Below, in pieces: positions 1,432 through 16,952 of a stretch of 64,000 bases of DNA. The number at the start of each line of letters is the position of its first letter. The stretch's first letter is position 1. Source of the DNA: Thermodesulfobacteriota bacterium. GTDB taxonomy: Bacteria > Desulfobacterota > Desulfobacteria > Desulfobacterales > C00003060. The notes beneath the pieces are model-generated. The model had not been told where the DNA came from and searched no databases. It saw only the letters and a list, made by a program, of their open reading frames with translations. Made by a program: the position numbers and the translations under genes. The stretch spans positions 32,001 to 96,000 of the forward strand of contig JAXHVD010000005.1 of assembly GCA_034189385.1 (NCBI GenBank), read 5' to 3'.

Positions 1432-1569
1432 TTAGGTATACATGAGGGAATAGAGCCTGGTTCTTTCCCAGAGAGATGTAATGTCCCAAGCTTGTCTTTT
1501 AGGAAGTATCCTGACCAGGCGGCAGTAGACATGCAGGGCATTGAGGTTATGGTGTAAGAAGTTTTTCAT
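1432..1569 (-). CDS. Small hypothetical protein, 45 aa (MKNFLHHNLNALHVYCRL...)
   Basis: ATG at 1569 with a purine-rich RBS (AAAGGGGGAAAATACG-ATG) and its own sigma-54 promoter immediately upstream. Confidence 0.65.
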   Translation of the reverse strand: MKNFLHHNLNALHVYCRLVRILPKRQAWDITSLWERTRLYSLMYT

Positions 1570-1604: not shown

Positions 1605-1621
1605 TGCACTGGCCATGCCAA
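1605..1621 (-). promoter_or_regulatory. Sigma-54 (-24/-12) promoter
   Basis: TTGGCATGGCCAGTGCA with exact GG-N10-GC spacing; 14 of 16 positions identical to the promoter at 14431. Confidence 0.8.
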
Positions 1622-1728
1622 CTCACGGCAACCTCGGCCGCGCTTCAATATAACCAATTGTAATGAGACAGATTCTTGGATTTCCAGCCTTTGTGAAGGG
1701 ATTTTGGGTCCGTGGGCAACTGATGAGT

Positions 1729-1780
1729 TGTTGTGTGCAATGCAACTTATTGCAGTGGCAGTGTCTCCTCAAGGCCAACA
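1729..1780. promoter_or_regulatory. Paired upstream activator sites (TGTTG-N9-CAACA type)
   Basis: TGTTGTGTGCAATGCAACT (1729-1747) and TGTCTCCTCAAGGCCAACA (1762-1780), 33 bp apart; the proximal site is 109 bp from the -24 box. Confidence 0.65.
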
Positions 1781-1858
1781 TCACGATCGGAGAGAGGGAG
1801 AAAAGGGCAGACTCGAAAAAAGTCAGAAACGGGCGTTGTGACTTCTTGCGACACCATC

Positions 1859-1893
1859 AAAAAAGGGAGGCGGCCAAAACGGCCCCCTCCCTC
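1859..1893 (-). terminator. Rho-independent terminator of the Tyr/Pro-rich precursor gene
   Basis: Minus strand reads GGGAGGGGGCC-GTTTT-GGCCGCCTCCC followed by a T tract, about 25 nt after the stop. Confidence 0.8.
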
Positions 1894-1917
1894 TAGGAGT
1901 TGCCCGAGGAGGTAGCT

Positions 1918-2172
1918 TTACTCAGCGCCACCGCCCATTGCCGGCATTGCCCCGCCGGGAATGCCGTACGGGACCACAGGGTAGCAGGGATAGGGGAAAC
2001 AGGGGAAGTAAGGATAGCCCATGTAGAAGGGAAAACCGGGGTAGCAGGGATAGCCGGGGATGTACCCAGGGACATAACCCGGGCCGGGGTAACAACCACC
2101 TGCCACCTCACTCATAGCCTTGCCGTTTAGTTCCTTGTCCATTTCCAAATCCTTGATTTTGACCTTTTTCAT
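1918..2172 (-). CDS. Double-glycine-leader secreted peptide precursor with Tyr/Pro/Gly/Cys-rich core (84 aa)
   Basis: RBS AAAGGAGAAGGAAA-ATG; leader MKKVKIKDLEMDKELNGKAMSEVAGG; own sigma-54 promoter and terminator; C39 peptidase transporter nearby. Confidence 0.88.
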   Translation of the reverse strand: MKKVKIKDLEMDKELNGKAMSEVAGGCYPGPGYVPGYIPGYPCYPGFPFYMGYPYFPCFPYPCYPVVPYGIPGGAMPAMGGGAE

Positions 2173-2224
2173 TTTCCTTCTCCTTTCTTTTTGTTTTTTG
2201 CTGGCGTTTGGTTTACTGTTGGTC

Positions 2225-2241
2225 TGCATCCCCCGTGCCAA
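2225..2241 (-). promoter_or_regulatory. Sigma-54 (-24/-12) promoter
   Basis: TTGGCACGGGGGATGCA, near consensus with GG-N10-GC, about 50 bp upstream of ATG 2172. Confidence 0.88.
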
Positions 2242-2348
2242 CACCGTCGCCAATATTGGATGAACAGTGATAAGTATTTATCATTCAACATCAATTTTGA
2301 ATAAGGGCCTTTTGGGGGAAGCTCCGTATTTTCCAGGTCTCTAAATCT

Positions 2349-2400
2349 TGTTGCTTTTTTTGCAACACATCTGGCATGATCTGTTTGTTCACTGCCAACG
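2349..2400. promoter_or_regulatory. Paired upstream activator sites
   Basis: Palindrome TGTTGC-T7-GCAACA (2349-2367), 109 bp from the -24 box, and TGTTTGTTCACTGCCAACG (2382-2400), 33 bp further. Confidence 0.7.
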
Positions 2401-2653
2401 CTTCTGTTGAGTCGAAGCATTCTGTTGTCCCTTTGCTTGTGACAAGAAGAGTCAAAACCCCTTGATTTGGAGGGATGAAATGGCCATTTTGGGATTGTCT
2501 TTTCATTGAATCTCTGGTATTTGAGATTTTGGCAGTTTGACACTTTCAGAGCACCAGCAACCGTTTTTCCCATAAACAAACAAGTTGTGAAGATCTTGCC
2601 GCTTGGCCTGACAGAACATTCTTTGTGCTGTTCCGTGCCTAAGCGTTAAGGTG

Positions 2654-2772
2654 TTGAACCGAATAAGCGAGCGCATTCCCCGCTGCTTGCGGCGGGGTTA
2701 GCGAGTGTATAGTTAAGATGACAACATCCTTGCGGTGAAGATTCCCCGTGGCTTGCCGCGGGGAGGGTTCAA
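2654..2772. mobile_element. 119-bp non-autonomous miniature element (REP/MITE-like) with two GC-rich hairpins
   Basis: Terminal inverted repeat TTGAACC...GGTTCAA; hairpins CCCCGCTGCTTGCGGCGGGG (2678-2697) and CCCCGTGGCTTGCCGCGGGG (2744-2763). Confidence 0.6.
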
Positions 2773-2865
2773 TTCATCATTATTCGTGCTCGTGGCTGTA
2801 TGCCGTTGCATCGGGCGCCTCGTCAGTTCCCTGTGTCTTTCAATTGCATTGATCTGTGAGGTACA

Positions 2866-3549
2866 TTGAGAAGGCCCCTTTCCGTTGGATACTTGGCGCT
2901 CCTGCCGTCTATCATTGCCATCCTTGCCTCTGCAGCTATTGCCGAAGATCGATCTGAAAAAGAGATTTGGCAGCTATCCCCCGACTATGAGCTCATGAAG
3001 CCCAAAGTGATTGCGGTGGTTCCCATGGACAACTTCTCTTTGGAGCCCAACGTTGAGAAGGCCTTGTACCAGGAGGTCTATGAACGATTGAAGGTGAAGG
3101 GATACATGAGGATTGCGGCCGAAAAAGTAGATGAGGTCATGAAAGAGCTCGGTATTCAAACGCCTGGTCAACTGGCGGGGATTTCACTCGCCAGGCTTGG
3201 GAAAAAACTTAAGTGTGAGGCTGTGTTGATGGGGCAGATCGAGCAGTCTGGCACGATCCATAAAGGGATTTATGACGCTGTAGCAGTCTCTTGTTCTCTT
3301 AGGCTGGTGGACTGCGCCACGGGGAGAATGCTCTGGCAAACGGAGCAGTGGAGAGCCGCCCACAGACAGTGGCAGGTGGATCCGATTAATCTATTTATCA
3401 ATGTTGCCGCCCATGAAAAGGCCTCACGTGAAAAGAGAGTGGCCTGCCTCGTCCATGAGATGCTGAAGACATTGCCCCAGGGCCACGTCGATGTGCAAGT
3501 TGGCGACCTTTTAAATCAAGCCCAGGAGATCCCAGCAAACCAACCGTAG
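2866..3549 (+). CDS. Exported protein, DUF799/CsgG-like fold
   Basis: N-terminal signal peptide; IAVVPMDN...LKVKGY...AVLMGQI...SLRLVDCATGRMLW pattern typical of DUF799/LpoB/CsgG-like proteins. Confidence 0.65.
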   Translation: MRRPLSVGYLALLPSIIAILASAAIAEDRSEKEIWQLSPDYELMKPKVIAVVPMDNFSLEPNVEKALYQEVYERLKVKGYMRIAAEKVDEVMKELGIQTPGQLAGISLARLGKKLKCEAVLMGQIEQSGTIHKGIYDAVAVSCSLRLVDCATGRMLWQTEQWRAAHRQWQVDPINLFINVAAHEKASREKRVACLVHEMLKTLPQGHVDVQVGDLLNQAQEIPANQP

Positions 3550-3602
3550 AATAGTATGTTGGTACACCCCGCTTTTCGGACCGGTATGATCGGAGGAAAA
3601 AG

Positions 3603-5018
3603 ATGAAGGCTTCACTGGCAATCAGGTTCTCTCTATTGATGGTGACGGTCCTAAGTGCATGCTCTGTGGGGCCCCAATATGAACGCCCGAAGCTTGAGGA
3701 AAAGAAGGCTTGGGGTGAAACAGAAGCTGCCGAATTAGGGCCCTGCCGAGTCATACAGATGGATTGGTGGACGGGTTTTGGCGATCCTTATCTTAACAAA
3801 TTGGTCCAAGAGGCTATCTCAGGCAGTTTTGACTTGAAGATTCTGCTCGGACGTATCCAGGAAGCAGGTGCTACGATTAAAGGGGCTCGGGCGCAACTGA
3901 TGCCTTCTCTAGACTTGTCCACAAAGGCAGAGTTTAGTCGGGCGGAAGTGCCTGACTTCGGTGGCGGTCACACGGTGGCTGACTCTCAACAGGCCACCGG
4001 ACAGACGAGTTTGAGTTGGGAAATAGACATGTGGGGCAAGAAGAGGAGAGAGTATGCAGCAACCAAAGCTGAATATGAAGCCAGTCAAGCTGACTATCGG
4101 GCAGGATATCTAAAGCTGGTTTCGGAGCTGGCAATGGCCTATTTTCAGATCCGCCAGATTGATGAGCAGTCCCGTATGACGGACAGGTCCCATGGACAAT
4201 ACAATCAAATACTGACCATCTACCAAAACCAATACGCTGAAGGCCTTGTTCCTCAGTGGAAAGTGCTGCGGCAAGAGGCAGAAGTGAAAAGGCTGAATCA
4301 GGATTTGTTGGAACTTGAAAGGGTGCGAAAGAGGCTTGAAAACAGAATAGCCACTTTGTTGGGCCGGCCTGCAGGGGATTTGAAAATTCCCCGTGCCAAC
4401 CTGAGACAAAACCTGCGGCCCGTGAAGGTGCCTGTGGGCCTTCCCTCTGACCTTCTGTCCCGACGTCCGGACATTGTGGCAGCCGAATACCGCCTCATTA
4501 AGGCAACCCATAACGTAGGTGCGGCCGAAGCCGCCAGGCTCCCATCTTTTGGTCTGACCGGCTCTGGCAGCTTAGTGAGTGAAAGCCTCAAGGGGCTGCT
4601 CACGGGCACCTGGGCGCTGTCCATCGCACCAGCCGTGTCCATGCCGCTTTTTGATGGTGGCAGTCGCAAGGCTGACGTTGCTGCAAAACAAGCACGAGCA
4701 CAAGTAACCCAAGAGGTGTATCGCAAGACAGTAATGACAGCCTTTGAAGAGGTGGAGAACGCTTTGGTAAATCTGGAGAGTCGACAAAAGCAGCAGGCTG
4801 TCCTGAAGGAGAAGCTCGACGGGCTGAAACAGGTTCGATCTCAAACCACCGCCAAATTTGAACTTGGCTTGATATCCCAATTACAGGTTCTAGACATCGA
4901 GCGGGAGCTTTATGCAGCTGAGAAGTCGCTTCTGCAGATGCATCGTTACCTCTTGGATGATACCGTCTCTCTCTTTAAGGCCCTGGGCGGCGGCTGGGGC
5001 AAGGTCACAGTGAAGTAG
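3603..5018 (+). CDS. Outer membrane factor lipoprotein (NodT/OprM/TolC family)
   Basis: Lipobox LSAC-SVGP, WWTGFGDPYLNKLV, SWEIDMWGK, PSDLLSRRPDIVAAE, LFKALGGGW. Confidence 0.95.
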   Translation: MKASLAIRFSLLMVTVLSACSVGPQYERPKLEEKKAWGETEAAELGPCRVIQMDWWTGFGDPYLNKLVQEAISGSFDLKILLGRIQEAGATIKGARAQLMPSLDLSTKAEFSRAEVPDFGGGHTVADSQQATGQTSLSWEIDMWGKKRREYAATKAEYEASQADYRAGYLKLVSELAMAYFQIRQIDEQSRMTDRSHGQYNQILTIYQNQYAEGLVPQWKVLRQEAEVKRLNQDLLELERVRKRLENRIATLLGRPAGDLKIPRANLRQNLRPVKVPVGLPSDLLSRRPDIVAAEYRLIKATHNVGAAEAARLPSFGLTGSGSLVSESLKGLLTGTWALSIAPAVSMPLFDGGSRKADVAAKQARAQVTQEVYRKTVMTAFEEVENALVNLESRQKQQAVLKEKLDGLKQVRSQTTAKFELGLISQLQVLDIERELYAAEKSLLQMHRYLLDDTVSLFKALGGGWGKVTVK

Positions 5019-5056
5019 CGTGAGAAAGTAGAATTTTGACCGGAGACATTTTTCCT

Positions 5057-7108
5057 ATGAAAGTCATCCTGCAGGCCGAGCCAAATACGGGTATCCAAGA
5101 TATCGTCATCGAGGGCTTGCCTTTTGTGATCGGCCGCGGCGAAGGCAAGTTTTCGCAGTACGAAGAGCAATTCCCGGATCAGCTAAAGAAGCTTTCCAGG
5201 CGGCATGCCCGGATCTTCGTCGAGGGGGGCAGACTGTACATAGAGGACCTGGGCAGCACCAACGGCACTTTTTTGGGCGGACAACGGCTTCATGATCAGC
5301 CCATGCCTCTTGGAAATGGGGACGCTATAGCCTTTGGCGCTTTCTTTAAATACGTGATTTACATAGATCAACCTGAGACGAAATCGGCGGAAAGCCGGCC
5401 CGGCGGGGAAAGCACCATATACGTGTCGGACGCTTCCTCCTTCTTGGGCATGCTAGCCTCGGAGAAGAAAGCAGATCAGGGCCCTTCTTCAGGCGGCCGC
5501 CAAGAAACCTCCTCCCAATCCTCTATTCCGTGTGCGGGCACCCATTCGAAACTTAAGGACAAGAAAAGACTTTTTGCCGCCTTTATCGCTGAGTTCTGGG
5601 ACAAGCCCGGAGACGGCCGGAAACGAAAATGGTACTTGCTGGGTTTGGTCGGGGTCCTCTTGGCTGCAGGGGTTGTTTCAGTGGTCGCCCTCAGTTCGCC
5701 CGAACGGAAGTTGAAGAGACTAATGAAGCAACAGCGTTACACTGAGTGTGCTCAGGTGGCTGATGCAATACTGCGGGAGGATCCTCACGATGAACGCGTG
5801 TGTGATATCGCAACAGAGGCTCTCATAAAGGGCATTTTGCCTGACTGGATGGACAAATTGAAAAGGGCACGCTTCGCTGAGGCCCGGGAATTCCTAGCCT
5901 CAGCGGCATCACGAAACGAACACAATCGTGACGGCTTAAAAGCTATAGAGTTGTTGGTTTGGGTCACAGACCTTGAAGCGTTCTTTGCCGGAAGGAAGGG
6001 CGAAACACCTGTAACCATATACCGGGACGAGGAAAAGGTAGAGTCCTTGCTCAGTCGATGGACCAAGGACAAGAACTGCAACTGCTCTCTTCTGGACCAA
6101 ATGGCAAACCACCATCCTCCATTTGCCATTTACCAGAGACAGATACACAGCGATCTAAATGCACTGAAGACCTTGGAGACGATGCGTGTTGAGCCCACCG
6201 AAGAGCTCAAGGCGGCAATAGAAAGTCAATTGGATGCGGACCGGCCTGAGGCTTTGGTTGCAACTGTAGAAAACTTCAGACGAAAGTACCCAGAGATCGG
6301 CGGAATAGAGGCATTGCAGAAAGATGTGGCTGCCTATATTGCCCTCTGGAGAGCGGTGGAGTCAAAGGAATTGTTCAGGGTGTCCTCCTTGCTTGAAGAA
6401 GACCCTTATCAGACCAAGCCATTTGTGGACAAGGTCGCCCACATTCGTGAAAAGATCCTGCCCTCGCCCGCCGTCGTTGAGGCATACAGAAGGGCCAGAG
6501 AGGCCTGGTTGGGGGGGGCTCCCAAAAAAGCCATCGCGATCCTTCAACCCCTCGTCAACGAGAAATGGGGCGAACTGGCAGAGAGGAAACTGAAACACTA
6601 TCGTCAGGTTCTAAAGGACTTCGCTGCGGTGGAAGGGTCAAGAGACAGATTAGACTACGGTGTCCTCCTGCTCTCTTTTCATAATATCCTTATTCCAAGT
6701 GAGGACGAGGTTTTCTTGAAGTTGATAGAAAAGGATTACGAGAAGATTAGAACCGAAGAGTTGAAGAAGAGTCAGGCTTCATTCATGGAGGCGCAAGCAA
6801 AATGGGATGACTACCTAAAAGGTGGTGGGATTTCGGGGCTTCTTCGCCTTGACACAAAGGTGTCTGAGGAGTTTCGAAGAAAGGCAGGACTTCTGAGAAC
6901 GGCCTTTGAGGCTTTTTCGTCAGGTGCCAGCATATATGGTCTTCTAAACAGGGAGTTGCCCGATACGTGGAAGACCCTTGAGAAGACCATTCTTGATGAA
7001 GTCCAAATCCAACGACTACGTCTTGATGATCTCAGAAACGTATTGGACCCTGCTGTATCGTCAGAGAAGGTCAAATTGCTACCGAATCCATCAGAGAGGA
7101 AAGACTGA
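5057..7108 (+). CDS. FHA-domain membrane protein with large helical (TPR-like) C-terminal region
   Basis: FHA motifs VIGR, LSRRHA, DLGSTNGT; one hydrophobic helix (WYLLGLVGVLLAAGVVSVVAL); alternative TTG start at 5036. Confidence 0.85.
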   Translation: MKVILQAEPNTGIQDIVIEGLPFVIGRGEGKFSQYEEQFPDQLKKLSRRHARIFVEGGRLYIEDLGSTNGTFLGGQRLHDQPMPLGNGDAIAFGAFFKYVIYIDQPETKSAESRPGGESTIYVSDASSFLGMLASEKKADQGPSSGGRQETSSQSSIPCAGTHSKLKDKKRLFAAFIAEFWDKPGDGRKRKWYLLGLVGVLLAAGVVSVVALSSPERKLKRLMKQQRYTECAQVADAILREDPHDERVCDIATEALIKGILPDWMDKLKRARFAEAREFLASAASRNEHNRDGLKAIELLVWVTDLEAFFAGRKGETPVTIYRDEEKVESLLSRWTKDKNCNCSLLDQMANHHPPFAIYQRQIHSDLNALKTLETMRVEPTEELKAAIESQLDADRPEALVATVENFRRKYPEIGGIEALQKDVAAYIALWRAVESKELFRVSSLLEEDPYQTKPFVDKVAHIREKILPSPAVVEAYRRAREAWLGGAPKKAIAILQPLVNEKWGELAERKLKHYRQVLKDFAAVEGSRDRLDYGVLLLSFHNILIPSEDEVFLKLIEKDYEKIRTEELKKSQASFMEAQAKWDDYLKGGGISGLLRLDTKVSEEFRRKAGLLRTAFEAFSSGASIYGLLNRELPDTWKTLEKTILDEVQIQRLRLDDLRNVLDPAVSSEKVKLLPNPSERKD

Positions 7109-8475
7109 TGTCCCAAGAAAAACACCCAGAGGTTTTCGTGGACGCCGTGGAAGAGCACAGTGCGGAAGCCCTTGAAGTGCTCATGGAAAGGTCCTCTTTG
7201 TTAGCCCGGGGGATTATCTATCTGCTGATAGCCCTCTTAGCGTCGCTGTTTATCTGGTCTTTTTACGGCAAGGCAGATGTGATCATTAAGGCTAAAGGGC
7301 AATTGGAGCCGGCGTCTGAGGAAAGACGGGTCTATTCACCCACAAACGGTGAATTGATCGACATCTATGTGGCAGAGGGCATGCCCATATCCAAGAATGA
7401 CCTCCTGGCTCGCATCAAGGCGCCAGAAGCCATCAAGGCTGCGGCAGGAGCAGTGGAGGCAAAGATGAAACTTCAGGAAGCTGAGCGGCAAAAAGAGGTC
7501 TTTCCAGAGAAGAAGAAGATAATGGAAGAAGAGCTTGCCACCATAGCCAAACACATTGAGCAGAAAGAGAAGGAGTACAGTCAACTTAAGACAGAAGGAT
7601 TGCGGAACCTTTCGGAGAGCCAAAGACATAAACTAGAGGCAACGAGAACCAAGCTGGAAGAAGCAAGAAGCGAAAGAGATCTTGCGAAACGGACGGCGGG
7701 TACATACAAGCGCCTCTATGAGACGCCAGGCCATGGCGGCGTCTCCAGACAAGAAACGGAAAAGGCAGAAAGCACATACCTTAAGGCAAATGCCACGTAT
7801 GAGCGTTTGTTGACGGAGCTACAGAACCTGGAACTTGAGTTCAGCAAACAACATGCGGAAACGGGCAACAAGATTGACAAGACATACATTGAGCTACTGG
7901 GTATGCGTGTCAAACATGCAAACAAGAGGCAGGAAATCGCAAACGCGGAAAGCCGGATTGACGTCCAGTATCGCACGGCGCGGGCGAAGTGGGAGGCCGC
8001 TTCCCTGGTGAGTTTTGAGGACCTTGATCAAGAAACGCTAGTGATCCGTTCCCCTGTATCCGGGAAGATAACCCGGGTCTCCTTCAAGCAACAAGGAGAA
8101 AAGGTGGAAGCAACAAAAGCCCTCGTTTCCATCGCCCCGGCAGATGCCAGGGATATTCTGCGTGTTTCTATCTTGGACAAGGACCGTGGCTTCCTCAAGG
8201 TAGGCCAACCGGCAAAACTGAAGTTTGCTGCCTTTCCTTTTCAGCGCTATGGCTTCATACGGGGCAAACTGGAGTATATATCTCCCTCTGCAGAGCTCTC
8301 AAAGGACGGACAGCCGCTATACAATGGCCGGGTCAGTTTGGAACGTGACTATTTCATAGTCAACGGTGAGGAGATAAAACTGAGGTATGGCATGACTGCA
8401 GATGCGGAGATCATAGTTCAAAAGCGCAGGTTGATAGATCTGGCCTTGGATCCGGTGAGAAGACTCAAAGGCTAG
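7108..8475 (+). CDS. HlyD-family type I secretion membrane fusion protein
   Basis: N-terminal TM helix, lipoyl-like halves, long coiled coil, KLKFAAFPFQRYG, LRYGMTADAEI. Confidence 0.95.
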   Translation: MSQEKHPEVFVDAVEEHSAEALEVLMERSSLLARGIIYLLIALLASLFIWSFYGKADVIIKAKGQLEPASEERRVYSPTNGELIDIYVAEGMPISKNDLLARIKAPEAIKAAAGAVEAKMKLQEAERQKEVFPEKKKIMEEELATIAKHIEQKEKEYSQLKTEGLRNLSESQRHKLEATRTKLEEARSERDLAKRTAGTYKRLYETPGHGGVSRQETEKAESTYLKANATYERLLTELQNLELEFSKQHAETGNKIDKTYIELLGMRVKHANKRQEIANAESRIDVQYRTARAKWEAASLVSFEDLDQETLVIRSPVSGKITRVSFKQQGEKVEATKALVSIAPADARDILRVSILDKDRGFLKVGQPAKLKFAAFPFQRYGFIRGKLEYISPSAELSKDGQPLYNGRVSLERDYFIVNGEEIKLRYGMTADAEIIVQKRRLIDLALDPVRRLKG

Positions 8476-8664
8476 GGGCGGCGTGGACTGAAGGGTCGGG
8501 ATCTTACACAGTCAGCCCGACATGAATTGATCTGTGCCAGTGACCGCACTTTCACGGTCGTGGGATTCCATGTTAAGAAAGGAGGTGACCGTATTCCCGG
8601 GGGGAGGAATTTGACAGGAAAGGTAGCGCGCCTGAGTATTTATGGGTTCTTGAAGGAGGTAAAG

Positions 8665-9417
8665 ATGAGCACAGCGATCAAGATTAACGACGAGGTGGTT
8701 TCTGCAGAGCAATTTATCAATATCCTGAAAATGTCAAACGAGTTTCCTTTGCTGGCCGAGAAAGTTATCCGCGACAAGATAACGGTACAGGAGGCCAAAA
8801 AGAAAGGCATCAGTGTGTCCACCGAGGAGGTCCAGCAGGAAGCGGACGATTTCAGACGCGTTGCGGCCCTTCATCGGGCAAAGGATACGCAGGAATGGAT
8901 GGATCAGAGAGGGCTGACGCTGGATGAGTTTGAGATTTTTGTAACGGAGAGAATCTACAAGAAGAAGATGGTTGAAACCATCACGAGCGAGCAGTCCATT
9001 GAAGAGTATTTCAAGCTGAACTCGCCCAAGTTCGACAGTGCCGATATCAGGCACATCGTGGTGGACAGTGAGGCCAAGGCAAAAGAACTGATGTCTCTGC
9101 TGAGTGAAGACCCAGAGGGTTTTGGCGAGTTGGCCAAGGAGCACTCGCTTGACAATGAGACCAGAAAGACGGGAGGACAGATCGGAGGCTTGCGTCGGGG
9201 GGTGCTGCCCGATGAGGTGAGTGCCAAGGTCTTCAATGCATCTGCAGGAGATGTCGTCGGGCCCTTGGAGTTGGGCGATGGGTATTTCTACGAGATTATC
9301 CAGGTTACAGCCGTCAATCCTGCCAGCCTGGACGATTCCACCAAGGAAGAGATAGGTGAGTTACTTTACAACGACTGGCTGGAGGCACGTCTGCAAGAGC
9401 ACAGTGTTACGGTATAG
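8665..9417 (+). CDS. Parvulin (PpiC/SurA-like) peptidyl-prolyl isomerase without signal peptide
   Basis: RBS AAGGAGG; RHIVV...FGELAKEHSLD...TGGQIG...GDVVGPL rotamase motifs after a SurA-like helical region. Confidence 0.9.
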   Translation: MSTAIKINDEVVSAEQFINILKMSNEFPLLAEKVIRDKITVQEAKKKGISVSTEEVQQEADDFRRVAALHRAKDTQEWMDQRGLTLDEFEIFVTERIYKKKMVETITSEQSIEEYFKLNSPKFDSADIRHIVVDSEAKAKELMSLLSEDPEGFGELAKEHSLDNETRKTGGQIGGLRRGVLPDEVSAKVFNASAGDVVGPLELGDGYFYEIIQVTAVNPASLDDSTKEEIGELLYNDWLEARLQEHSVTV

Positions 9418-9775
9418 TTCGTTTCTGTCCCTATAAATCGCTCTTATTCCAATGAGCGGCTTTATGCGTGGGTATTGCGCCTGGGGCTTGAAAGGAACGG
9501 CTGTGATCCGCCTATGGTGGACTGACTTCGAGACTGAGGTCAGTGCTGATTCATAAGCTGTTTATACATGGGCAGTAGCTGGGTTTCGTGAGAAGAGGAA
9601 GGTGGCTGAAACCGTGGTCCTTGCAGGCAAGGGGGAGTTGCCGCTTTTTTTTATTCCGGGGCGCCCCCCTTTTACTTCATAAAGGTTGTGGTCCCCTTAC
9701 AATAGGTTTCTTTGAGTCCATGGCTTTGACTTGCCGGAGTACATTGGCCGGCCAGATTAAACAGGAGGCCTTTCA

Positions 9776-12700
9776 TTGACAGAGTCATCCATAGTAGACT
9801 TCCTTGCTAGCGTTGAGTTCTTCTCTCCTTTTATATATCGAGAACTGGAGCAATTGGCCGGATATGCCGAGTCGTTGCACTTCGAGTTTGGGGACACCAT
9901 ATGCACCTCTGGCGACACGGCCCAAGGCCTCTTCGTCATCAAGGCGGGGCGGGTGAGACTCTTTACCGAAGACAGGGGCAAAGAGAGGAGCATAGGGGTT
10001 CGCGAACCTGGGGACACCTTTGGCGAGGTCTCGGTTTTGGAAGAGCCAACGCTCGACTATTCGGCCCGCGCCTCTAGCAAGGTGGAGATCCTTTTCTTGC
10101 CTCGCCAGCCGGTCATGGATTTGTTGGCGAAAAACGAGGCAGCAAAGGGTTTTATCGCACGATATGTGGCCTTGAAGGTGAGCGGTGCTGTGGTGACCCA
10201 GCTTTTCAACCTTCGCTCCAAGGTGGACCGCGGAGAGATCGAAGAGATTATCAAGGGCATTGGCATTAAGCGCGTGAAGGCAGGAGAGAAGATCCTTGTC
10301 CAAGAGGGCGCTGAAGATCGACGGCTGTACATCGTGCGAGAGGGCAAAGTAAGTATTGTAAAGGAGGAAGAGGGTTCGGAGTATTCTTTAATGAGTCTGG
10401 GACCAGGGGAAGTGTTCGGAGAAAAGGCCTGCCTCCTTTATTCGACGCAGCCGGCTACGGCCGTTGCAGACACGGACAGTGTCCTGATGGCCGTGCCACA
10501 AGAGACCATCCACTTCATTCTGGAGCGTAATCCTGGCCTGCGGGAGGTGTTGGAGGAACGCATCCATTTCGCCGAGAAGGAATTGGAGCGGAGAAGAAAA
10601 GTTGCCGAGCGCAGGAAAAAACGTCTTCTCTTTGACATCAAGTCCAAGCCCAAAATGGGGGAGCGCATTATCAAGCGGTTTCCCCTAGTAGAGCAGGCCG
10701 AGGAAATGGATTGCGGTGCGGCCTGTCTTGCCATGATCTGCAAGTACTATGACATCCCTGTGACCCTGGGAAAACTGAGGGAGATGGCCAATGTGACCAT
10801 TGAAGGTGCTACCATGGAAAGCCTGGCACGTGTGGGTGAATCCTTGGGCTTTGCGACAAAGGGCGTCCGATGCACCTACAAATCCATGCTCAGTTTTGAG
10901 CTTCCCTTTGTAGCACACTGGGAAGGATATCACTACATTGTGGTGTACGGCATTTCCAAGTCCCATGTTTGGGCTGCTGACCCGGGGGTGGGGTTTAGGA
11001 AGATGTCCGTGTCGGAGTTTGAACAGGGGTGGACGGGCAATAACCTGTTGTTTTCCCCCACCGGGGCCCTCGCTCAGATCGCCGTTGAGCAGTCCCCCTG
11101 GCTTCGTTTTGTCGGCTATCTCAGTCCCTTTAAGAAGATCCTTCGGGACCTCATTTTTGCGTCCCTTATTGTCCAGTTGCTGGGCCTGGCCCCTCCTGTG
11201 ATCATACAGAACATCCTGGACAGGGTCGTGGTTCACCAGAACTATCACCTCCTCCATGTCATGATCGTGGGTCTGGCAATCACGATGATATTTAGCCAGG
11301 TCACGGGGTATCTCAGCGCTTACCTGTCAAATTTCATGATCCGCAAGATGGATTTCAACATGATGTCCCACTTCTATAAACATGTGCTTTCTCTGCCGAC
11401 GAGCTTTTTTGCCAAGCGGAAGGTGGGCGACATCATGGCCCGGTTTCAAGAAAATGACACCATCAGGCGGTTCATGACAGAGACCAGTATCAGGACCCTT
11501 ATAAGCACGCTGATGGTGTTTACCTATTTCATTGTCATGTTCATGTACAATGTAAAACTGACCCTTTTGCTACTCGCCTTTTTGCCGCCCATCATCCTCC
11601 TTACCCTCTTGGCCACACCCAAATACAAGGACTACGCCCGGCGCAGTTTCTATGCCGAAGCTGATGCCCAATCCCTTCTCGTAGAAACATTGGGCGGGGC
11701 AGAGACAGTGAAAGGGACAGGCATCGAGCGACCAATGCGCCTAAAATGGGAGAAAAAGTATGTCAAGACCCTGGACCTGCGTTATCGTTGCGAAATGTTC
11801 ACCAGCCTGGTGGGGACTCTGGGCCAAACGTTAAAAGCGGCCACGACGCTTACGCTATTGTGGGTGGGGTCCAGGATGGTTCTGGCCCAGGAGCTTACCA
11901 TTGGCCAATTGATGGCTTTTAATGCCCTTATCGGCAGCGTGATGACACCCCTCATGGGCCTCGTGGGGGTTTGGGATGAGCTTCAAGAAACGCTCATTTC
12001 CATGGAGCGGCTGGGCGACGTGCTGGAGCTAGAGTCTGAGCAGAAGCCAGAAGAGGTCCCCGCCAAAGTGGTGCTTCCTGACCTGAAGGGAGACATACGC
12101 TTCGAGAATGTCTATTTTCGGTATGGTGGCAAGGAAACCCCTTATGTGCTGGAAAACATCAACATGGACATTCAGGCCGATACGACAGTGGCCATTGTTG
12201 GGCACAGCGGTTCAGGTAAAACCACACTGGCCAAAATGCTGGTGGGTTTCTATCGGCCCAGTGAAGGGAAAATATTCGTTGATGGTTATGATATTGGCAT
12301 GCTCGATGTAGAGTACTACCGTGCTCAAATTGGCTACGTCATGCAGAGTAATCTCCTCTTTTCGGGAACGGTCTCTGAAAACATTGCCGTGGGTGAGCAG
12401 AATCCGGACCCGAGACGCATTGCCGAGGCGGCCAGACTGGCTGATGCCCATGGGTTTATTGGCAACTTGCCTTTGGGTTACGAACAGGTCGTTGGTGAAA
12501 GGGGAATAGGCTTGTCCGGTGGGCAGATTCAGCGCATTTGTATTGCCCGTGCCCTTTACCGTGATTCAAGATTGTTGATTTTTGATGAAGCCACATCTGC
12601 CTTGGACAGCGAATCTGAAAGTCATATCCAGATGAATATGCGAAAGATCCTCAAGGGCAGGACTGCCATTATCATCGCCCACAGACTGAGCACCGTCATG

Positions 12701-12835
12701 CATGCTGACAGGATACTGGTCCTCTATGATGGGGCTATTGTGGAGGAAGGAAACCATCAAGAGCTGTTAGAGAGAAAGGGCATGTACTTTCATCTTGTCC
12801 AGAAACAGATATCTTCGGGAGAGATTAAGTCATGA
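9776..12835 (+). CDS. Peptidase-containing ABC transporter: 2x cNMP-binding, C39 peptidase, ABC membrane and ATPase domains
   Basis: Two cNMP-like domains (PGDTFGEVS, PGEVFGEKA); C39 catalytic residues QAEEMDCGAAC, HYIVV, ADP; Walker A GHSGSGKTT, LSGGQ, DEATSALD. Confidence 0.95.
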   Translation: MTESSIVDFLASVEFFSPFIYRELEQLAGYAESLHFEFGDTICTSGDTAQGLFVIKAGRVRLFTEDRGKERSIGVREPGDTFGEVSVLEEPTLDYSARASSKVEILFLPRQPVMDLLAKNEAAKGFIARYVALKVSGAVVTQLFNLRSKVDRGEIEEIIKGIGIKRVKAGEKILVQEGAEDRRLYIVREGKVSIVKEEEGSEYSLMSLGPGEVFGEKACLLYSTQPATAVADTDSVLMAVPQETIHFILERNPGLREVLEERIHFAEKELERRRKVAERRKKRLLFDIKSKPKMGERIIKRFPLVEQAEEMDCGAACLAMICKYYDIPVTLGKLREMANVTIEGATMESLARVGESLGFATKGVRCTYKSMLSFELPFVAHWEGYHYIVVYGISKSHVWAADPGVGFRKMSVSEFEQGWTGNNLLFSPTGALAQIAVEQSPWLRFVGYLSPFKKILRDLIFASLIVQLLGLAPPVIIQNILDRVVVHQNYHLLHVMIVGLAITMIFSQVTGYLSAYLSNFMIRKMDFNMMSHFYKHVLSLPTSFFAKRKVGDIMARFQENDTIRRFMTETSIRTLISTLMVFTYFIVMFMYNVKLTLLLLAFLPPIILLTLLATPKYKDYARRSFYAEADAQSLLVETLGGAETVKGTGIERPMRLKWEKKYVKTLDLRYRCEMFTSLVGTLGQTLKAATTLTLLWVGSRMVLAQELTIGQLMAFNALIGSVMTPLMGLVGVWDELQETLISMERLGDVLELESEQKPEEVPAKVVLPDLKGDIRFENVYFRYGGKETPYVLENINMDIQADTTVAIVGHSGSGKTTLAKMLVGFYRPSEGKIFVDGYDIGMLDVEYYRAQIGYVMQSNLLFSGTVSENIAVGEQNPDPRRIAEAARLADAHGFIGNLPLGYEQVVGERGIGLSGGQIQRICIARALYRDSRLLIFDEATSALDSESESHIQMNMRKILKGRTAIIIAHRLSTVMHADRILVLYDGAIVEEGNHQELLERKGMYFHLVQKQISSGEIKS

Positions 12836-14100
12836 AAACGGGCTCTGTGGTATCCTTTGCTCGGCTCTTAGAGCGTATTGAGATTCTCCGTTCGGGCCTC
12901 CGCTGGGCCCCCCAGCTTGACCGTACGGGGGTCCAGAGGATCTTAAGGCAGGTGAACAAGTTACGCGAGGACGTCCTACTGCTTTCTGGGGTGGAAAGAT
13001 ACAAAAAGCGTATGCGTGAGAAGGCCCCGCCGAAGCCCAAGGCTGCTAAGAAGAGACTTCAGGCGCTCATGGACCGCAACTTTGTCTTTGAAGGGGTTTT
13101 TGGCGAAAACCCAAAGCTGCTGGAAGCCTTGGAAACAGTGGAAAGAGCTGCACGGACAGAGTTGCCCATCTTGATCGAAGGCGAGAGCGGCACAGGCAAA
13201 GAATTACTTGCCAAGCTCATCCACGCTGGAAGTGACCGGTCGGAGAAGACCTTTGTCTCCGTTAACTGTGGTGCCATCACCCCCAGTTTGCTGGAATCTG
13301 ATCTGTTCGGCCACGTCAAAGGGGCTTTCACGGGCTCTGTAAAGGACCGCAAAGGCAAGTTTGAGACCGCCAAAGACGGCATCATTTTTCTGGATGAGAT
13401 TGGTGAGCTTTCGGCGGAAAGCCAGGTCAAGCTCTTACGGGTGCTGGAAAGTGGCGAGATCCAGAGAGTCGGCTCAGATGAGGTCATTCGGGTAAACACC
13501 CGCGTCCTTGCAGCCACAAACCGCAACTTGTACCAGATGACGGCAGACGGGCAGTTCCGAGAGGACTTGTACTACCGTTTGAGCGTCATTTCCGTCACGT
13601 TACCCCCTCTTCGCGAGCGTACCGATGAGATCCCCCTGCTTATAGACTACTTCTGTGCCGAGGCATCGGAGAAGTTGAATCGTCCTGCTGTGAGGCTCTC
13701 TCCGCGACTCAGAAGATTTCTGCAAAAACACCCTTTTCCAGGAAACATCCGGGAGCTGCGAAACATCATCTACCGTGTAGCCTGTCTGGCCGATGAAGTG
13801 GCGGACCTAAGAGATCTGCCGGAGACCATACGCCCTTCGTCAGTGGGGCCCCAAGACGCAGTTGAAGGGCGGGCCCCAAGCCGATTTACTACCCTGGCCG
13901 AGGCCAGGAAGGCGGCTACCGACGCAGCGGAAAAAGAGTTTCTGGAAGAACACCTGACACAGACCCATGGAAACGTGACGCAGTTGGCCAAACACCTGGA
14001 GATGAATCGTTCCTACCTTCAGACGCTACTAAAGAGCCATGGGCTGCGGGCGAAAGATTTCAAAGGCAAGGCAACGTCTACAAAGAACTCTGAAAGATGA
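12832..14100 (+). CDS. Sigma-54-dependent enhancer-binding activator (AAA+ and Fis-type HTH)
   Basis: GESGTGKE, SDLFGHVKGAFTGS, FLDEIGE, FREDLYYRL, FPGNIREL, C-terminal HTH GNVTQLAKHLEMNRSYL. Confidence 0.95.
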   Translation: MKTGSVVSFARLLERIEILRSGLRWAPQLDRTGVQRILRQVNKLREDVLLLSGVERYKKRMREKAPPKPKAAKKRLQALMDRNFVFEGVFGENPKLLEALETVERAARTELPILIEGESGTGKELLAKLIHAGSDRSEKTFVSVNCGAITPSLLESDLFGHVKGAFTGSVKDRKGKFETAKDGIIFLDEIGELSAESQVKLLRVLESGEIQRVGSDEVIRVNTRVLAATNRNLYQMTADGQFREDLYYRLSVISVTLPPLRERTDEIPLLIDYFCAEASEKLNRPAVRLSPRLRRFLQKHPFPGNIRELRNIIYRVACLADEVADLRDLPETIRPSSVGPQDAVEGRAPSRFTTLAEARKAATDAAEKEFLEEHLTQTHGNVTQLAKHLEMNRSYLQTLLKSHGLRAKDFKGKATSTKNSER

Positions 14101-14122
14101 AGGGGCCCACAGGCCCCTTTTT
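14100..14122. terminator. Terminator hairpin between convergent genes
   Basis: AAGGGGCC-CACA-GGCCCCTT-TTT between the activator stop and the precursor stop. Confidence 0.75.
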
Positions 14123-14136
14123 GCTCTTTGTGACAG

Positions 14137-14364
14137 CTAAGCGCCCCAGCCGCCCCATGGCATGCCCCAGCCGCCCCATGGGTTTCCCCACCAGCCGGTA
14201 CCCCAGGAGGTGGAGCTGCTGCTTCTGCCGCCGCCGCCCCAGGGGGTCCACCACCAGCTCGAGCTGGAGCGCTGACTCCACCACCAACCGCCTGTCAAGC
14301 TCTTCAACGCCTCTTTGTCGAGCTCCATGTTCTTTTCCAGGTCCTTAACTTCAATGTTTGCCAT
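14137..14364 (-). CDS. Double-glycine-leader secreted peptide precursor with Trp/Ser/Gly-rich core (75 aa)
   Basis: RBS AAAGGAG; leader MANIEVKDLEKNMELDKEALKSLTGG aligns without gaps to the leader at 2172 (10 of 26 identical); own sigma-54 promoter. Confidence 0.9.
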   Translation of the reverse strand: MANIEVKDLEKNMELDKEALKSLTGGWWWSQRSSSSWWWTPWGGGGRSSSSTSWGTGWWGNPWGGWGMPWGGWGA

Positions 14365-14430
14365 GTTCTATCTCCTTTCTTCTGATGTTTGTTCAACTCG
14401 CTCTTTCTTGAGGATCCGTCTCTAGACGTA

Positions 14431-14447
14431 TGCACTGCTCATGCCAG
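14431..14447 (-). promoter_or_regulatory. Sigma-54 (-24/-12) promoter
   Basis: CTGGCATGAGCAGTGCA with GG-N10-GC, about 65 bp upstream of ATG 14364. Confidence 0.85.
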
Positions 14448-14557
14448 GTCGGGGTCTATCAGGCCATCCATCATGATAACGCTTTATAATTAATAGCTAA
14501 ATTGATGATGGAATCTGTCTTGCCTTGCAACCTATTGCAGCTAGTCCTTTGTTTTTT

Positions 14558-14620
14558 TGGTGTCTTTTACCCAACATAATCAACGGGGACTTGGAGGCAA
14601 GTGTTGGCTCCATCCTAACA
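14558..14620. promoter_or_regulatory. Paired upstream activator sites
   Basis: TGGTGTCTTTTACCCAACA (14558-14576, 112 bp from the -24 box) and TGTTGGCTCCATCCTAACA (14602-14620), 44 bp apart. Confidence 0.6.
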
Positions 14621-14712
14621 ACGTGTTGCCAGGCCCCTTCCCACTGCTTGGCATCATTGCGACCTCCCGAAAAAGAGCGGATTTTCTGCCTGGCCCACGT
14701 CCATTCTTTGAT

Positions 14713-14764
14713 TGTTTGCAAAAAAGTAACATTTTGGTTTTCATTTGTTCTTCTAAACACAACA
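14713..14764. promoter_or_regulatory. Paired upstream activator sites for the rightward promoter
   Basis: TGTTTGCAAAAAAGTAACA (14713-14731) and TGTTCTTCTAAACACAACA (14746-14764), 33 bp apart; the proximal site is 111 bp from the -24 box at 14875. Confidence 0.65.
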
Positions 14765-14873
14765 CAAACCAGACGTGAAGATTGGTCAAGTCGATCTGAA
14801 ACGACTTGCCGGGTTCGACATTTAATAGACATGATAACTGCTTATGGAAGAGCATGGGGGGACAGCCCGTAGG

Positions 14874-14890
14874 TTGGCACGGTAGATGCG
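14874..14890 (+). promoter_or_regulatory. Sigma-54 (-24/-12) promoter facing the kinase operon
   Basis: TTGGCACGGTAGATGCG with GG-N10-GC. Confidence 0.82.
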
Positions 14891-15140
14891 ATGTAAATGA
14901 AACGAAGGAACCCTGAGGGGGCGAGGCGGATCTTCTCTGACTAAAGGTCGCTGCCGGTCTGCATGGCAGAGGCACCTACAGTGGTAGGTGAAAAAAGAGG
15001 GCACTGGCGGCATCGGGGGCAGAGCGGAGAGGGGTCCGAATGTTCTTGGCTCCATGAGGGTGTGGCCATTTTTTTGAGGCCAGCCGGCTATTGTTTTTTT
15101 GGAATCTTTGGTATATGAGATGACATAGTGAGGGGAAATA

Positions 15141-16952
15141 GTGGCTCTAGCCAATGAAATCTGCACGTACTACTCTGTGCAGTTTACTCCTCAGATACCG
15201 CAGATAGACTGGCCTCTTATGTCCGAAGATGAAACCAAAATTAAGTCAGCTCTTGGTAAGAAGTATGAGATCAAGAGCCTGATCAACAGCGGAGGGATGG
15301 GTGCCGTCTACTTGGGCATCCATCGGGCCCTCGATAGGCCCGTGGCTATAAAGATCATCCATCAGGAGTTGAGCAAGGATGAGCAGCTCAGGAGGAGGTT
15401 CTGCCAAGAGGCCAAGTTGGCCGCAAGTCTCGATCATCCTGTCATCATTGACGTATACGATTTTGGCAGCAAAGATGATTTTGACTATATCATTATGCCC
15501 TATGTTGAGGGTAAAACGCTCCAAGACCGGCTCAAGGAAGCGGGCAAATTCGGAGTGCAGGAATGCTTAAGATTGATGATCAAACTAACAGATGCCCTTT
15601 GTTATGCACACAAGAAGAACGTGGTGCATCGGGACATCAAGCCATCAAATGTCATGATAGATAACCATGGACATCTTGTTCTCACTGATTTCGGCATCTC
15701 CAAGGACATGGGGGATCTTGGGCTTACTGTTCCCGGGAAAGTGCTCGGATCGCCGAAATACATGAGCCCTGAGCAGATTAGAGGGGAGGATGTGGACGGC
15801 AGAAGCGATCTGTACTCCTTGGGCTTGGTTTTCTACGAAATGATTACGGGTAAACATCCTTTTGAGGGCAAGGATGCCACCTCCATTTACTACGCCCAGG
15901 CCCACGAGATTCCCCCCAGGCCGGAAGAGTCTGTACTCGAAATCCCCGGTCAAGTGGGGGATATCATCATGAAGCTCCTTGAGAAGTCCCCGGAACAAAG
16001 GTACCAAGACAGTGGTCAATTGCTGAGGGATTTGGAGGGCCTTGGCCCTGGTCCTCCCAAGGAGCTAAGGATAGATGTCGATGCAACGTTGGTAGACCCC
16101 GAAACAGGACCTGATGGGAGGGGCAAGCCTTCTGCCCAGGACGCGAAGAAAGAAATCTCTCCATTAGGAAGGCCCAATGAAATGGCCGACGGTCTTGCCG
16201 AACAAGCACAGCCTTCGGCGAAAGACAGGAAGACTCCCAGATGGATGGTCCCTGCACTGGGAGCGACTCTAGTAGTTGTGGTCGGCATTGTGTGGGTCAT
16301 GCTCATGCCATCGACAAAAGACCCTGGGCCAAGCCCGACAGACAATCAGTCTCCACAAAGCCTTGAGAAAGAAAATGGGTCAAGCCTCTCTTCAATGGGT
16401 GTGGAAGTCCTCAAATCGGAAACGGAGAAGGAGTTGAGCTCTGAGCTGACTCAGGGTCTGGGGGCCAAACCCTCATTCGATTCAGTAGTAGAACGCTTGC
16501 TGGTCCTTGCTCAAGACAGAGAGGCCGTCTTTCTTCGGCTGTCAGTAGACAAGCCGAATTTTAAAATCGGCGAATCCATTTCCTACCATTTTCGATCAGA
16601 CAAGGCCTGCTATTTGGCATTGCTCAGTCTTACCACCGGCGGGGAACTCATTCAGGTTTTTCCCAACAAGTTCAACCCGGACCAATATATAGAGGCGAAA
16701 AGGGATTATGCCATTCCTGGAGAGAAGATGGATTTTGAATTGCATATTACAGGGCCGCCAGGGGAAGAAGAGCTTCTGGCCTTCGCAGCCGATGCGCCCT
16801 TTGACCTTTTCTCTGCCAGCTTTGAAGCTCAGCCCTTCTTCCAGGTGGACAAGGGTGACCAAAGGATACTGGATAGAATCATTAACAGAATACAAGAAAT
16901 GGAGAGAATCAACGTCGCACAGAGGCGTGTAAGCTATACAATAAGTGACTAA
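15141..16952 (+). CDS. Hanks-type Ser/Thr protein kinase with TM helix and C-terminal DUF4384-like domain
   Basis: GGMGAVY, VAIK, HRDIKPSN, DFG, YMSPE, SDLYSLG; TM helix near aa 370-390; C-terminal FKIGESISYHFRSDKACYL...QVFPN. Start is GTG 15141 or ATG 15219. Confidence 0.93.
   Translation: MALANEICTYYSVQFTPQIPQIDWPLMSEDETKIKSALGKKYEIKSLINSGGMGAVYLGIHRALDRPVAIKIIHQELSKDEQLRRRFCQEAKLAASLDHPVIIDVYDFGSKDDFDYIIMPYVEGKTLQDRLKEAGKFGVQECLRLMIKLTDALCYAHKKNVVHRDIKPSNVMIDNHGHLVLTDFGISKDMGDLGLTVPGKVLGSPKYMSPEQIRGEDVDGRSDLYSLGLVFYEMITGKHPFEGKDATSIYYAQAHEIPPRPEESVLEIPGQVGDIIMKLLEKSPEQRYQDSGQLLRDLEGLGPGPPKELRIDVDATLVDPETGPDGRGKPSAQDAKKEISPLGRPNEMADGLAEQAQPSAKDRKTPRWMVPALGATLVVVVGIVWVMLMPSTKDPGPSPTDNQSPQSLEKENGSSLSSMGVEVLKSETEKELSSELTQGLGAKPSFDSVVERLLVLAQDREAVFLRLSVDKPNFKIGESISYHFRSDKACYLALLSLTTGGELIQVFPNKFNPDQYIEAKRDYAIPGEKMDFELHITGPPGEEELLAFAADAPFDLFSASFEAQPFFQVDKGDQRILDRIINRIQEMERINVAQRRVSYTISD

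Follow-up and report, generated by a model that had tools for sequence, protein, structure and literature searches.

We analyzed a 64,000-nt stretch of the sulfate-reducer-type genome of a Thermodesulfobacteriota bacterium (contig JAXHVD010000005.1, positions 32,001 to 96,000; hereafter the window), in which a row of peptide-export genes is flanked by four predicted sigma-54 promoters. These promoters belong to a set of nine in the genome, five of them outside the window, that share one upstream architecture built on a 19-bp dyad, TGTTG-N9-CAACA, at a fixed distance from the -24/-12 boxes. The nine precede six genes for peptides with a double-glycine leader, a 45-amino-acid (aa) open reading frame (ORF), a 98-aa protein, and an operon headed by a Ser/Thr kinase. 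We consider it probable that a single dedicated activator, a 422-aa enhancer-binding protein (EBP) encoded within the window at 12832-14100, acts at tandem enhancer sites to drive all nine as sigma-54 promoters. The sites, their fixed geometry, their statistical excess, and their co-occurrence with the EBP across lineages carry this finding, which confirms and extends a preliminary description of the window. That description had proposed that one activator co-induces the four targets in the window; the sequence evidence supports this, but the set is larger and its main targets are the predicted substrates of the peptide exporter, whose leader peptidase is of the C39 type.

The promoter pattern used in the window was TGGCA[CT]-N6-TGC, which includes GG-N10-GC, with site offsets counted from the T of TGGCA; candidate activator sites were scored over the ten specified positions of the 19-bp dyad. 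Five matches to the promoter pattern occur in the 64 kb. Four are the GG-N10-GC promoters previously placed at 1605(-), 2225(-), 14431(-), and 14874(+), each of which was found again, and the fifth, at 20992, lies within an ORF. The four are intergenic and correctly oriented to a gene, and the genome has one rpoN gene. ORFs with a ribosome-binding site begin 51, 68, 82, and 266 nt past the T of TGGCA for the 45-aa ORF, the 84-aa peptide, the 75-aa peptide, and the kinase, respectively. The proximal sites described at 109, 109, 112, and 111 bp from the GG were reproduced exactly, as were the second sites 33, 33, 44, and 33 bp farther out (Table 1). Counted to the T of TGGCA, the gap from the proximal site is 108-111 bp in all four.

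We evaluated the significance of this layout in two ways. In an unbiased enumeration of inverted repeats of the form 5-N(0-15)-5, TGTTG-N9 was the only one present at 9/10 or better in all four window upstream regions; with no position constraint applied, two of 2000 dinucleotide shuffles reached four of four for any dyad at this level. The same enumeration at a threshold of 8/10 was powerless (237 of 300 shuffles reached four of four), and the 9/10 version was used instead. In an independent test, the motif and its position were taken from the window and applied to the remaining 162 promoter-like matches in the genome. Seven of these had a site of at least 8/10 at -130 to -127, where 0.28-0.36 were expected (Poisson test, P between about 1e-7 and 2e-8). 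Site positions plotted for the full set of 166 promoter-like matches form a single peak, 11 sites falling in the -130 bin and between 0 and 4 in each of the others. Across the whole genome, sites scoring at least 8/10 show no enrichment (1,788, compared with 1,567 in a shuffled genome), so position-specific counts alone are informative. Enrichment over background, which the preliminary description had set as a test, fails for the motif alone across the genome and holds for its position relative to promoters and for the 9/10 dyad against shuffles.

Five of the seven extra position-matched promoters (C1:214128, C7:6924, C18:55849, C20:50419, and C45:188763) have the same anatomy as those in the window. 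The first four precede small peptide genes, and that at C45:188763 (locus L085:5402-5776) precedes the 98-aa protein, which contains Cys and has no double-glycine leader. The other two, C56:79619 and C63:77515, with an 8-9/10 site at the right position, were left out of the member count; the former lies 166 nt ahead of a response-regulator gene and may still be a member, the latter has no plausible downstream gene, and both fail searches with a position weight matrix (PWM) and with a sequence model of the layout. Across the resulting set, the proximal site begins at -127 to -130 in 9/9 promoters, and a second site of at least 8/10 lies 31-33 or 44 bp farther out in 7/9. The genome holds 44 such site pairs. 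Those seven, each separated from its promoter by 108-111 bp, are the only ones oriented toward a sigma-54 promoter; the genome-wide check for pairs combined with -24/-12 boxes that had been suggested returned regulon members only. By information content, conservation among the nine upstream regions is confined to the site, an AT-rich block, and the -24/-12 boxes, and mean pairwise identity over -105 to -5 is 31%. The AT-rich block, at -60 to -31, is a candidate bending site. Its AT content is 73-79% in all nine promoters, compared with 48% for the genome, and its A-T and T-T-A columns do not vary among 12 aligned sequences. By eye its spacing seems to depart from the E. coli IHF consensus. PWM and model searches trained on the nine found no tenth member in the assembly, which is 90% complete.

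We next compared the locus with those of related activators. Among 185,579 species genomes, full-length EBP orthologues (53-66% identical) occur at nine loci (L001-L009) in Desulfobacterales metagenome-assembled genomes (MAGs; among them Desulfonema limicola and Desulfatirhabdium butyrativorans), four Massilia species, and one Methylococcaceae MAG. In all nine, an exporter with cyclic-nucleotide-binding (cNMP) and C39 domains lies directly upstream of the EBP gene, and in six a peptidyl-prolyl isomerase gene is also present. None of the 70 loci L011-L080 has the cNMP-C39 exporter or the isomerase; L010, whose EBP is 41% identical, has a distant exporter (29%) and isomerase (25%). A site of at least 8/10 lies within 200 bp of 10 of the 12 sigma-54 promoter matches in the nine orthologous loci, seven of them with a pair, a count that overstates independence because the loci are kin and four are from Massilia. 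At the 71 control loci of non-orthologous EBPs, the motif occurs at 1 of 14 promoter matches and never as a pair. The motif-bearing promoters of the orthologous loci precede peptides of the same leader family. Because motif, EBP orthologue, exporter, and leader family co-occur across distant lineages, we take the EBP at 12832 to be the probable binder of the motif, a reading supported by both the statistics and the comparative genomics. Site positions vary among the lineages, at -150, -148/-115, and -150/-117 in Desulfobacterales loci and at -82/-50, -90/-59, -102/-70, and -91/-60 in Massilia. In two of the four Massilia loci the promoter stands ahead of precursor, isomerase, exporter, and EBP, which implies positive autoregulation there. 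The recognition helix of the C-terminal helix-turn-helix (HTH) is nearly invariant in all ten EBP proteins.

Closer relatives give a similar picture. A 92% identical relative on a metagenome contig (L087) has kept both divergent promoters and all four sites; by a count from its alignment to the window, 4 changes fall in the 40 half-site positions and 10 in the 36 spacer positions. A 66% relative on another metagenome contig (L089) has a promoter with a site at -126. Of 60 relatives, only G056 has the EBP and exporter orthologues together; among 36 genomes of the same genus, none does. The layout model recovers 9/9 promoters in this genome by construction (59.9-79 bits) and gives ten weak matches in nine of the 60 other genomes (17.5-25.2 bits), most spanning the promoter-proximal part only; the best, in G045, spans model positions 5-155. 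The model missed G056, the carrier of the EBP orthologue; it is too tied to one spacing, because promoters of the L001 type have other spacings. It does fit the L004 promoter with an 11-nt deletion between site and AT block, that is, one helical turn. A PWM built from the promoters of this genome was too specific for the other loci.

The activator combines an N-terminal two-helix domain, an AAA+ domain, and a Fis-type HTH, and its start overlaps the stop of the exporter gene by 4 nt. The AAA+ domain scores 226.6 bits to PF00158 (cut-off 20.2), and its loop sequence is GAFTGS in the window protein; orthologues have either this or GAFTGA. The HTH region is modeled as three helices at residues 364-402 (predicted local distance difference test, pLDDT, 86-88), and PF02954 reaches 28.8 bits in the L008 orthologue. 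Two helices appear in the N-terminal part of the same model, which is poor overall (mean pLDDT 53.5). A receiver or FHA domain in this part was considered and rejected, with no PF00072 match and no Pfam match for residues 1-88 at E up to 1, and the domain search of the protein found no receiver, GAF, or PAS domain. A profile of the N-terminal domain finds 52 clusters among 1.84 billion representative proteins, always in N-terminal position; a word-based search with residues 1-88 returned two close proteins, and an Atlas look-up gave no usable lead (best score 0.82). In the genome, neither the HTH (best 35% identity) nor the N-terminal domain has a paralogue. All NCBIfam equivalogs score below cut-off for the EBP.

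Table 1 Features of the window around the four sigma-54 promoters and the export gene row
Feature	Position (strand)	Details
45-aa ORF	1432..1569 (-)	Small-protein family, no double-glycine leader
Predicted sigma-54 -24/-12 promoter of 45-aa ORF	1605..1620 (-)	Pattern match; predicted start near 1594
Proximal candidate activator site, 45-aa ORF	1729..1747	9/10; begins at -127
Distal candidate activator site, 45-aa ORF	1762..1780	8/10; begins at -160, 33 bp farther
Hairpin and U-run 3' of precursor 1	1859..1894 (-)	Terminator-like, -29.3 kcal/mol
Precursor 1	1918..2172 (-)	26-aa double-glycine leader, 58-aa Cys/Tyr/Pro/Gly-rich core
Predicted sigma-54 promoter of precursor 1	2225..2240 (-)	Predicted start near 2214
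Proximal candidate activator site, precursor 1	2349..2367	10/10, perfect palindrome; begins at -127
Distal candidate activator site, precursor 1	2382..2400	8/10; begins at -160, 33 bp farther
GNA1162-like lipoprotein	2866..3549 (+)	First of export gene row
TolC-like outer-membrane factor	3603..5018 (+)	
FHA-domain protein	5036..7108 (+)	690 aa; between TolC and HlyD genes
HlyD-type periplasmic adaptor	7108..8475 (+)	
PpiC-type peptidyl-prolyl isomerase	8527..9417 (+)	With exporter in 6/9 orthologous loci
C39 exporter	9776..12835 (+)	1019 aa; two cNMP-binding domains, C39 peptidase, ABC membrane domain, ATPase
Sigma-54 activator (EBP)	12832..14100 (+)	422 aa; N-terminal two-helix domain, AAA+, Fis-type HTH
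Hairpin and U-run closing export/EBP gene row	14099..14122 (+)	
Precursor 2	14137..14364 (-)	26-aa double-glycine leader, 49-aa Trp/Gly/Ser-rich core
Predicted sigma-54 promoter of precursor 2	14431..14446 (-)	Predicted start near 14420
Proximal candidate activator site, precursor 2	14558..14576	9/10; begins at -130
Distal candidate activator site, precursor 2	14602..14620	9/10; begins at -174, 44 bp farther
Distal candidate activator site, kinase operon	14713..14731	8/10; begins at -162, 33 bp farther
Proximal candidate activator site, kinase operon	14746..14764	9/10; begins at -129
Predicted sigma-54 promoter of kinase operon	14875..14890 (+)	Predicted start near 14901; leader about 240 nt long
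Ser/Thr protein kinase with DUF4384	15141..16952 (+)	
Caspase-like (C14) peptidase	17039..19123 (+)	Probably in kinase operon
CsgG-like lipoprotein	19154..19882 (+)	Probably in kinase operon

The exporter directly upstream of the EBP is encoded by the sole C39 gene of the genome. Its domains (PF03412 at E 2.2e-38, with PF00664 and PF00005) identify it as a peptidase-containing ABC exporter, and two stretches N-terminal to the C39 domain match the cNMP-binding domain PF00027 (E 3.2e-38), an order also found in L002, L003, L005, and L008. Cys313 and His386, which we take to be the catalytic pair of the C39 domain, are invariant across nine orthologues. The protein scores below the NHLM equivalog cut-off (545 compared with 853 bits). 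The two window peptides and the four dispersed ones have a 26-aa leader in common. A hidden Markov model of this leader, run over the six-frame translation of the genome, found eight leader-family genes at E <1e-9, six of which have the promoter layout. In all eight the leader has Gly-Gly at -2/-1, V or L at -4, M or L at -7, and L or M at -12. These are the positions read by the C39 domain LahT150 (PMC6363468). The cores, of 39-58 aa, contain 15-30% Gly, 11-38% aromatic residues, and 3-26% Pro; those at C1 and C20 are related to each other, as are window precursor 2 and C4. The dispersed precursor genes stand alone amid unrelated housekeeping genes, with modifying enzymes absent alongside. 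Precursor 1 is probably a monocistronic unit, because a terminator-like hairpin follows it; 10 of 200 shuffles fold as well as this hairpin, which makes it weak support.

Based on these features, we propose how binding, looping, activation, and leader cleavage may proceed. EBP dimers would bind the two dyads via the C-terminal Fis-type HTH. The dyads lie 31-33 or 44 bp apart, equivalent to three or four turns, and would therefore both be on one face of the DNA. The bound dimers would seed an AAA+ ring; with the DNA bent at the AT-rich block, this ring could reach the closed sigma-54 holoenzyme 108-111 bp downstream, and its ATP hydrolysis would remodel the closed complex and open the promoter. 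The six peptide genes, probably monocistronic, would be switched on together as exporter substrates, and the sole C39 exporter would cleave their leaders after the Gly-Gly and export the peptides via HlyD and TolC. With receiver, GAF, PAS, and other known sensor domains all absent, the EBP could plausibly be controlled in trans or by its own expression. Candidate inputs are control in trans via the N-terminal helices, the nucleotide-binding domains of the exporter, and Ser/Thr phosphorylation. Bearing on the last are the FHA protein of the gene row, the kinase operon of the regulon, an FHA protein ahead of the exporter in L008, and a PP2C phosphatase beside the EBP in Massilia L005.

Several observations count against a single dedicated activator acting from tandem sites, besides the kinship of the orthologous loci and the quality of the structure model. 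The HTH of the window EBP scores 21.7 bits to PF02954 (E 1.7e-4), under the Pfam cut-off of 22. Several distal sites are only 8/10, a level reached about 1,650 times genome-wide by chance. The spacing between sites, described earlier as whole helical turns, is so only approximately: at 10.5 bp per turn, 33 bp make 3.1 turns and 44 bp make 4.2. For the nine promoters on which they were trained, searches with the PWM and the layout model are circular. Two of the eight precursors, C2:13804(-) and C4:862(+), have neither a sigma-54 promoter nor a dyad, and two of the nine orthologous loci (L002 and L008) have no such promoter within 10 kb.

We weighed four other explanations. The promoters and sites may be functional and yet be bound by a different EBP. 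The genome holds 30 strong PF00158 matches, so that adjacency of the activator to its targets is weak evidence and no proof of a regulator-target pair, and the C18 target has another EBP gene about 10 kb away. We nevertheless judge this unlikely: the motif travels with orthologues of the EBP at 12832 into Massilia and other Desulfobacterales, is nearly absent near the 71 other EBP genes, and no HTH elsewhere in the genome comes closer than 35% identity. Furthermore, the 36 same-genus genomes, which lack the EBP and exporter orthologues, also lack a full-length match to the layout model; the five matches there score a weak 17.5-20.5 bits, with the best four spanning only part of it. The layout could instead have been inherited, the peptide genes having spread as cassettes together with their promoter regions, so that it would reflect common descent and not present co-regulation. 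Six of the nine targets are indeed paralogous peptide genes of one leader family, with two clearly related core pairs, but outside the site, AT block, and boxes the upstream regions are close to random at about 31% identity, and three unrelated targets (the 45-aa ORF, the 98-aa protein, and the kinase operon) share the layout. Half-sites are also better kept than spacers in L087. Descent and function are compatible, and selection must have kept exactly these elements; inheritance as the whole explanation is quite improbable.

A further possibility, very improbable in our view, is that a repressor, an architectural protein, or some other factor that is not an EBP occupies the dyads, with activation coming from elsewhere or from solution. 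Some EBPs act without specific sites, and the identity of the binding protein is deduced here from sequence. Against this, the textbook EBP layout outlined in a review (PMC7057263) has the same components: a position 100-150 bp upstream of -24/-12, dyads in tandem at a spacing of about three turns, and a bendable stretch between. The EBP orthologue with which the dyads co-occur also has a conserved HTH. Chance, which the absence of genome-wide motif enrichment might seem to favor, has a negligible probability: it is refuted by the position-specific excess (7 compared with about 0.3 expected), by the dyad test, and by the orthologous loci, where the layout is kept across lineages. Regulation of the nine promoters by the EBP at 12832 therefore remains the reading that we prefer.

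At glnAp2, NtrC binds tandem dyad sites about three helical turns apart. The present regulon resembles this system and other textbook activators in its tandem dyads, an AAA+ domain with a GAFTGA-type loop, a C-terminal Fis-type HTH, and a bendable stretch, and differs from NtrC in that the EBP has a rare two-helix N-terminal domain in place of a receiver and that the targets are exported peptides and not nitrogen genes. The review places such enhancers 100-150 bp upstream of -24/-12 with a bendable stretch between (PMC7057263). The same source lists PspF and HrpR/HrpS as activators that have no cis-acting sensor domain and are controlled in trans. The window EBP is like them in having no known sensor domain and unlike them in that its AAA+ domain follows a conserved two-helix domain of about 55 aa. 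A partner resembling PspA or HrpV was not identified.

The closest parallel in regulatory logic is the PEP-CTERM/EpsH system with PrsR-PrsK-PrsT, in which dispersed and mostly single-gene operons encode proteins that share a sorting signal (Haft et al. 2006, PMC1569441). In that account, PEP-CTERM genes are preceded by a common element, an activator site and a sigma-54 -24/-12 promoter, and the phyletic profile of this element matches that of a Fis-type sigma-54 activator. Both systems thus place scattered genes with a single shared signal behind a common activator site and a sigma-54 promoter. They differ in the signal, an N-terminal double-glycine leader here and a C-terminal PEP-CTERM tag there, and in the machinery, a C39 ABC exporter with HlyD and TolC here and EpsH there. 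Unlike PrsR, the EBP has neither a receiver nor a partner histidine kinase, and the motif is also different. Identity of the EBP as PrsR was rejected (TIGR02915 at 283.2 bits, cut-off 502.6; no receiver), leaving a likeness in logic only.

On the export side, a related domain order is known from HetC of Nostoc PCC 7120 (PMC10986499), in which a cNMP-type domain precedes both an active C39 peptidase and the ABC transporter, with a nucleotide ligand thought to gate export. The HetC substrate is given there as unknown, with no leader-bearing gene nearby. The window exporter likewise has its cNMP-type domains N-terminal to C39; it differs in having two of them, and promoter layout and leader together point to eight candidate substrates. 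Cyanobacteria are not known to have sigma-54, so control of HetC would differ. Class II bacteriocins and microcins, as well as NHLP/Nif11 systems (TIGR03796 family), also pair one leader-cleaving ABC exporter with several small genes that share a leader. Systems of this kind are generally under two-component or quorum-sensing control, or have no described dedicated control. The present system is like them in its one exporter and several shared-leader genes, with no modifying enzymes beside the dispersed precursors, and differs from them in its dedicated sigma-54 enhancer regulon.

A full-text literature search, with subscription journals and supplements outside its scope, found no paper in which double-glycine peptides or C39 exporters are connected with sigma-54 or with an EBP. 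Term look-ups in two sigma-54 regulon surveys returned no bacteriocin, type I secretion, or peptidase in one (PMC4641369) and no bacteriocin, type I secretion, C39, or double-glycine in the other (PMC12316311). The regulon suggests that sigma-54 enhancer control is used for exported double-glycine peptides, and it offers a complete, testable wiring diagram for a rare and uncharacterized activator family, comprising a DNA motif, a geometry, nine targets, and a conserved partner exporter. It also provides a route to the scattered substrates of cNMP-domain C39 exporters, of which HetC is the one studied member. The presence of the system in cultured Massilia, such as Massilia sp. Leaf139 and M. 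suwonensis KACC 12635, makes it amenable to laboratory tests.

A more speculative extension, which we regard as rather unlikely, is that exporter and activator form one transport-coupled switch, and that the peptides are self-assembling surface or signaling peptides, not bacteriocins, tied to the module of kinase, caspase-like, and CsgG-like proteins. The idea arises because the EBP gene always follows the cNMP-C39 exporter and overlaps its stop, and because the rare N-terminal domain has no known sensor fold. Under it, the cytoplasmic nucleotide-binding domains of the exporter would hold or release the EBP, and precursor promoters would fire only with the export machine in place and ligand bound. 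Massilia would add positive feedback, the same promoter driving precursor, isomerase, exporter, and EBP.

The two remaining targets in the window lie outside the leader family. The 45-aa ORF has three paralogues on C62 (14182-14316, 16669-16803, and 91094-91225; 58-68% identical) and one 45-aa database homologue at 82% identity, which makes it likely to be a genuine small protein. One C62 paralogue has, 102 nt 5' of it, a sigma-54-like promoter that lacks the TGTTG dyad, and an identical sequence lies 390 nt 5' of a second; at least one other member of the 45-aa family may thus be sigma-54-controlled via another activator. For the kinase operon, the C-terminal part of the kinase and the caspase-like protein have no tblastn match in L001-L080, the nine orthologous loci included, in a search that did not cover the CsgG-like gene. 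The untranslated leader between the predicted start and the kinase gene (14901-15140) is partly kept in L087, and no Rfam family matched in the window, including this leader.

Further observations concern the neighborhoods of these genes. Downstream of the 98-aa protein gene at C45, on the same strand, lie an 84-aa ORF and then a RecD-like helicase gene. The stretch 5' of the C4:862 precursor resembles, by eye, the 3' end of a tRNA gene. In the export gene row, the middle part of the FHA protein is conserved between the TolC and HlyD genes in L002 (3615-4475) and L003 (3376-4515); an FHA domain on or beside this intermediate protein occurs in the window genome and L008 (6015-6722) only. Between the promoter of precursor 1 and the first gene of the row, window positions 2654-2773 contain a repeat, about 120 bp long and dispersed in the genome, that has two GC-rich hairpins and resembles a miniature inverted-repeat transposable element or repetitive extragenic palindrome. 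It has at least eight near-identical copies (95-99%) on other contigs and 105 blastn-short hits in total. In L087, a 42-bp insertion with a similar GC hairpin splits, by eye, the two divergent site sets.

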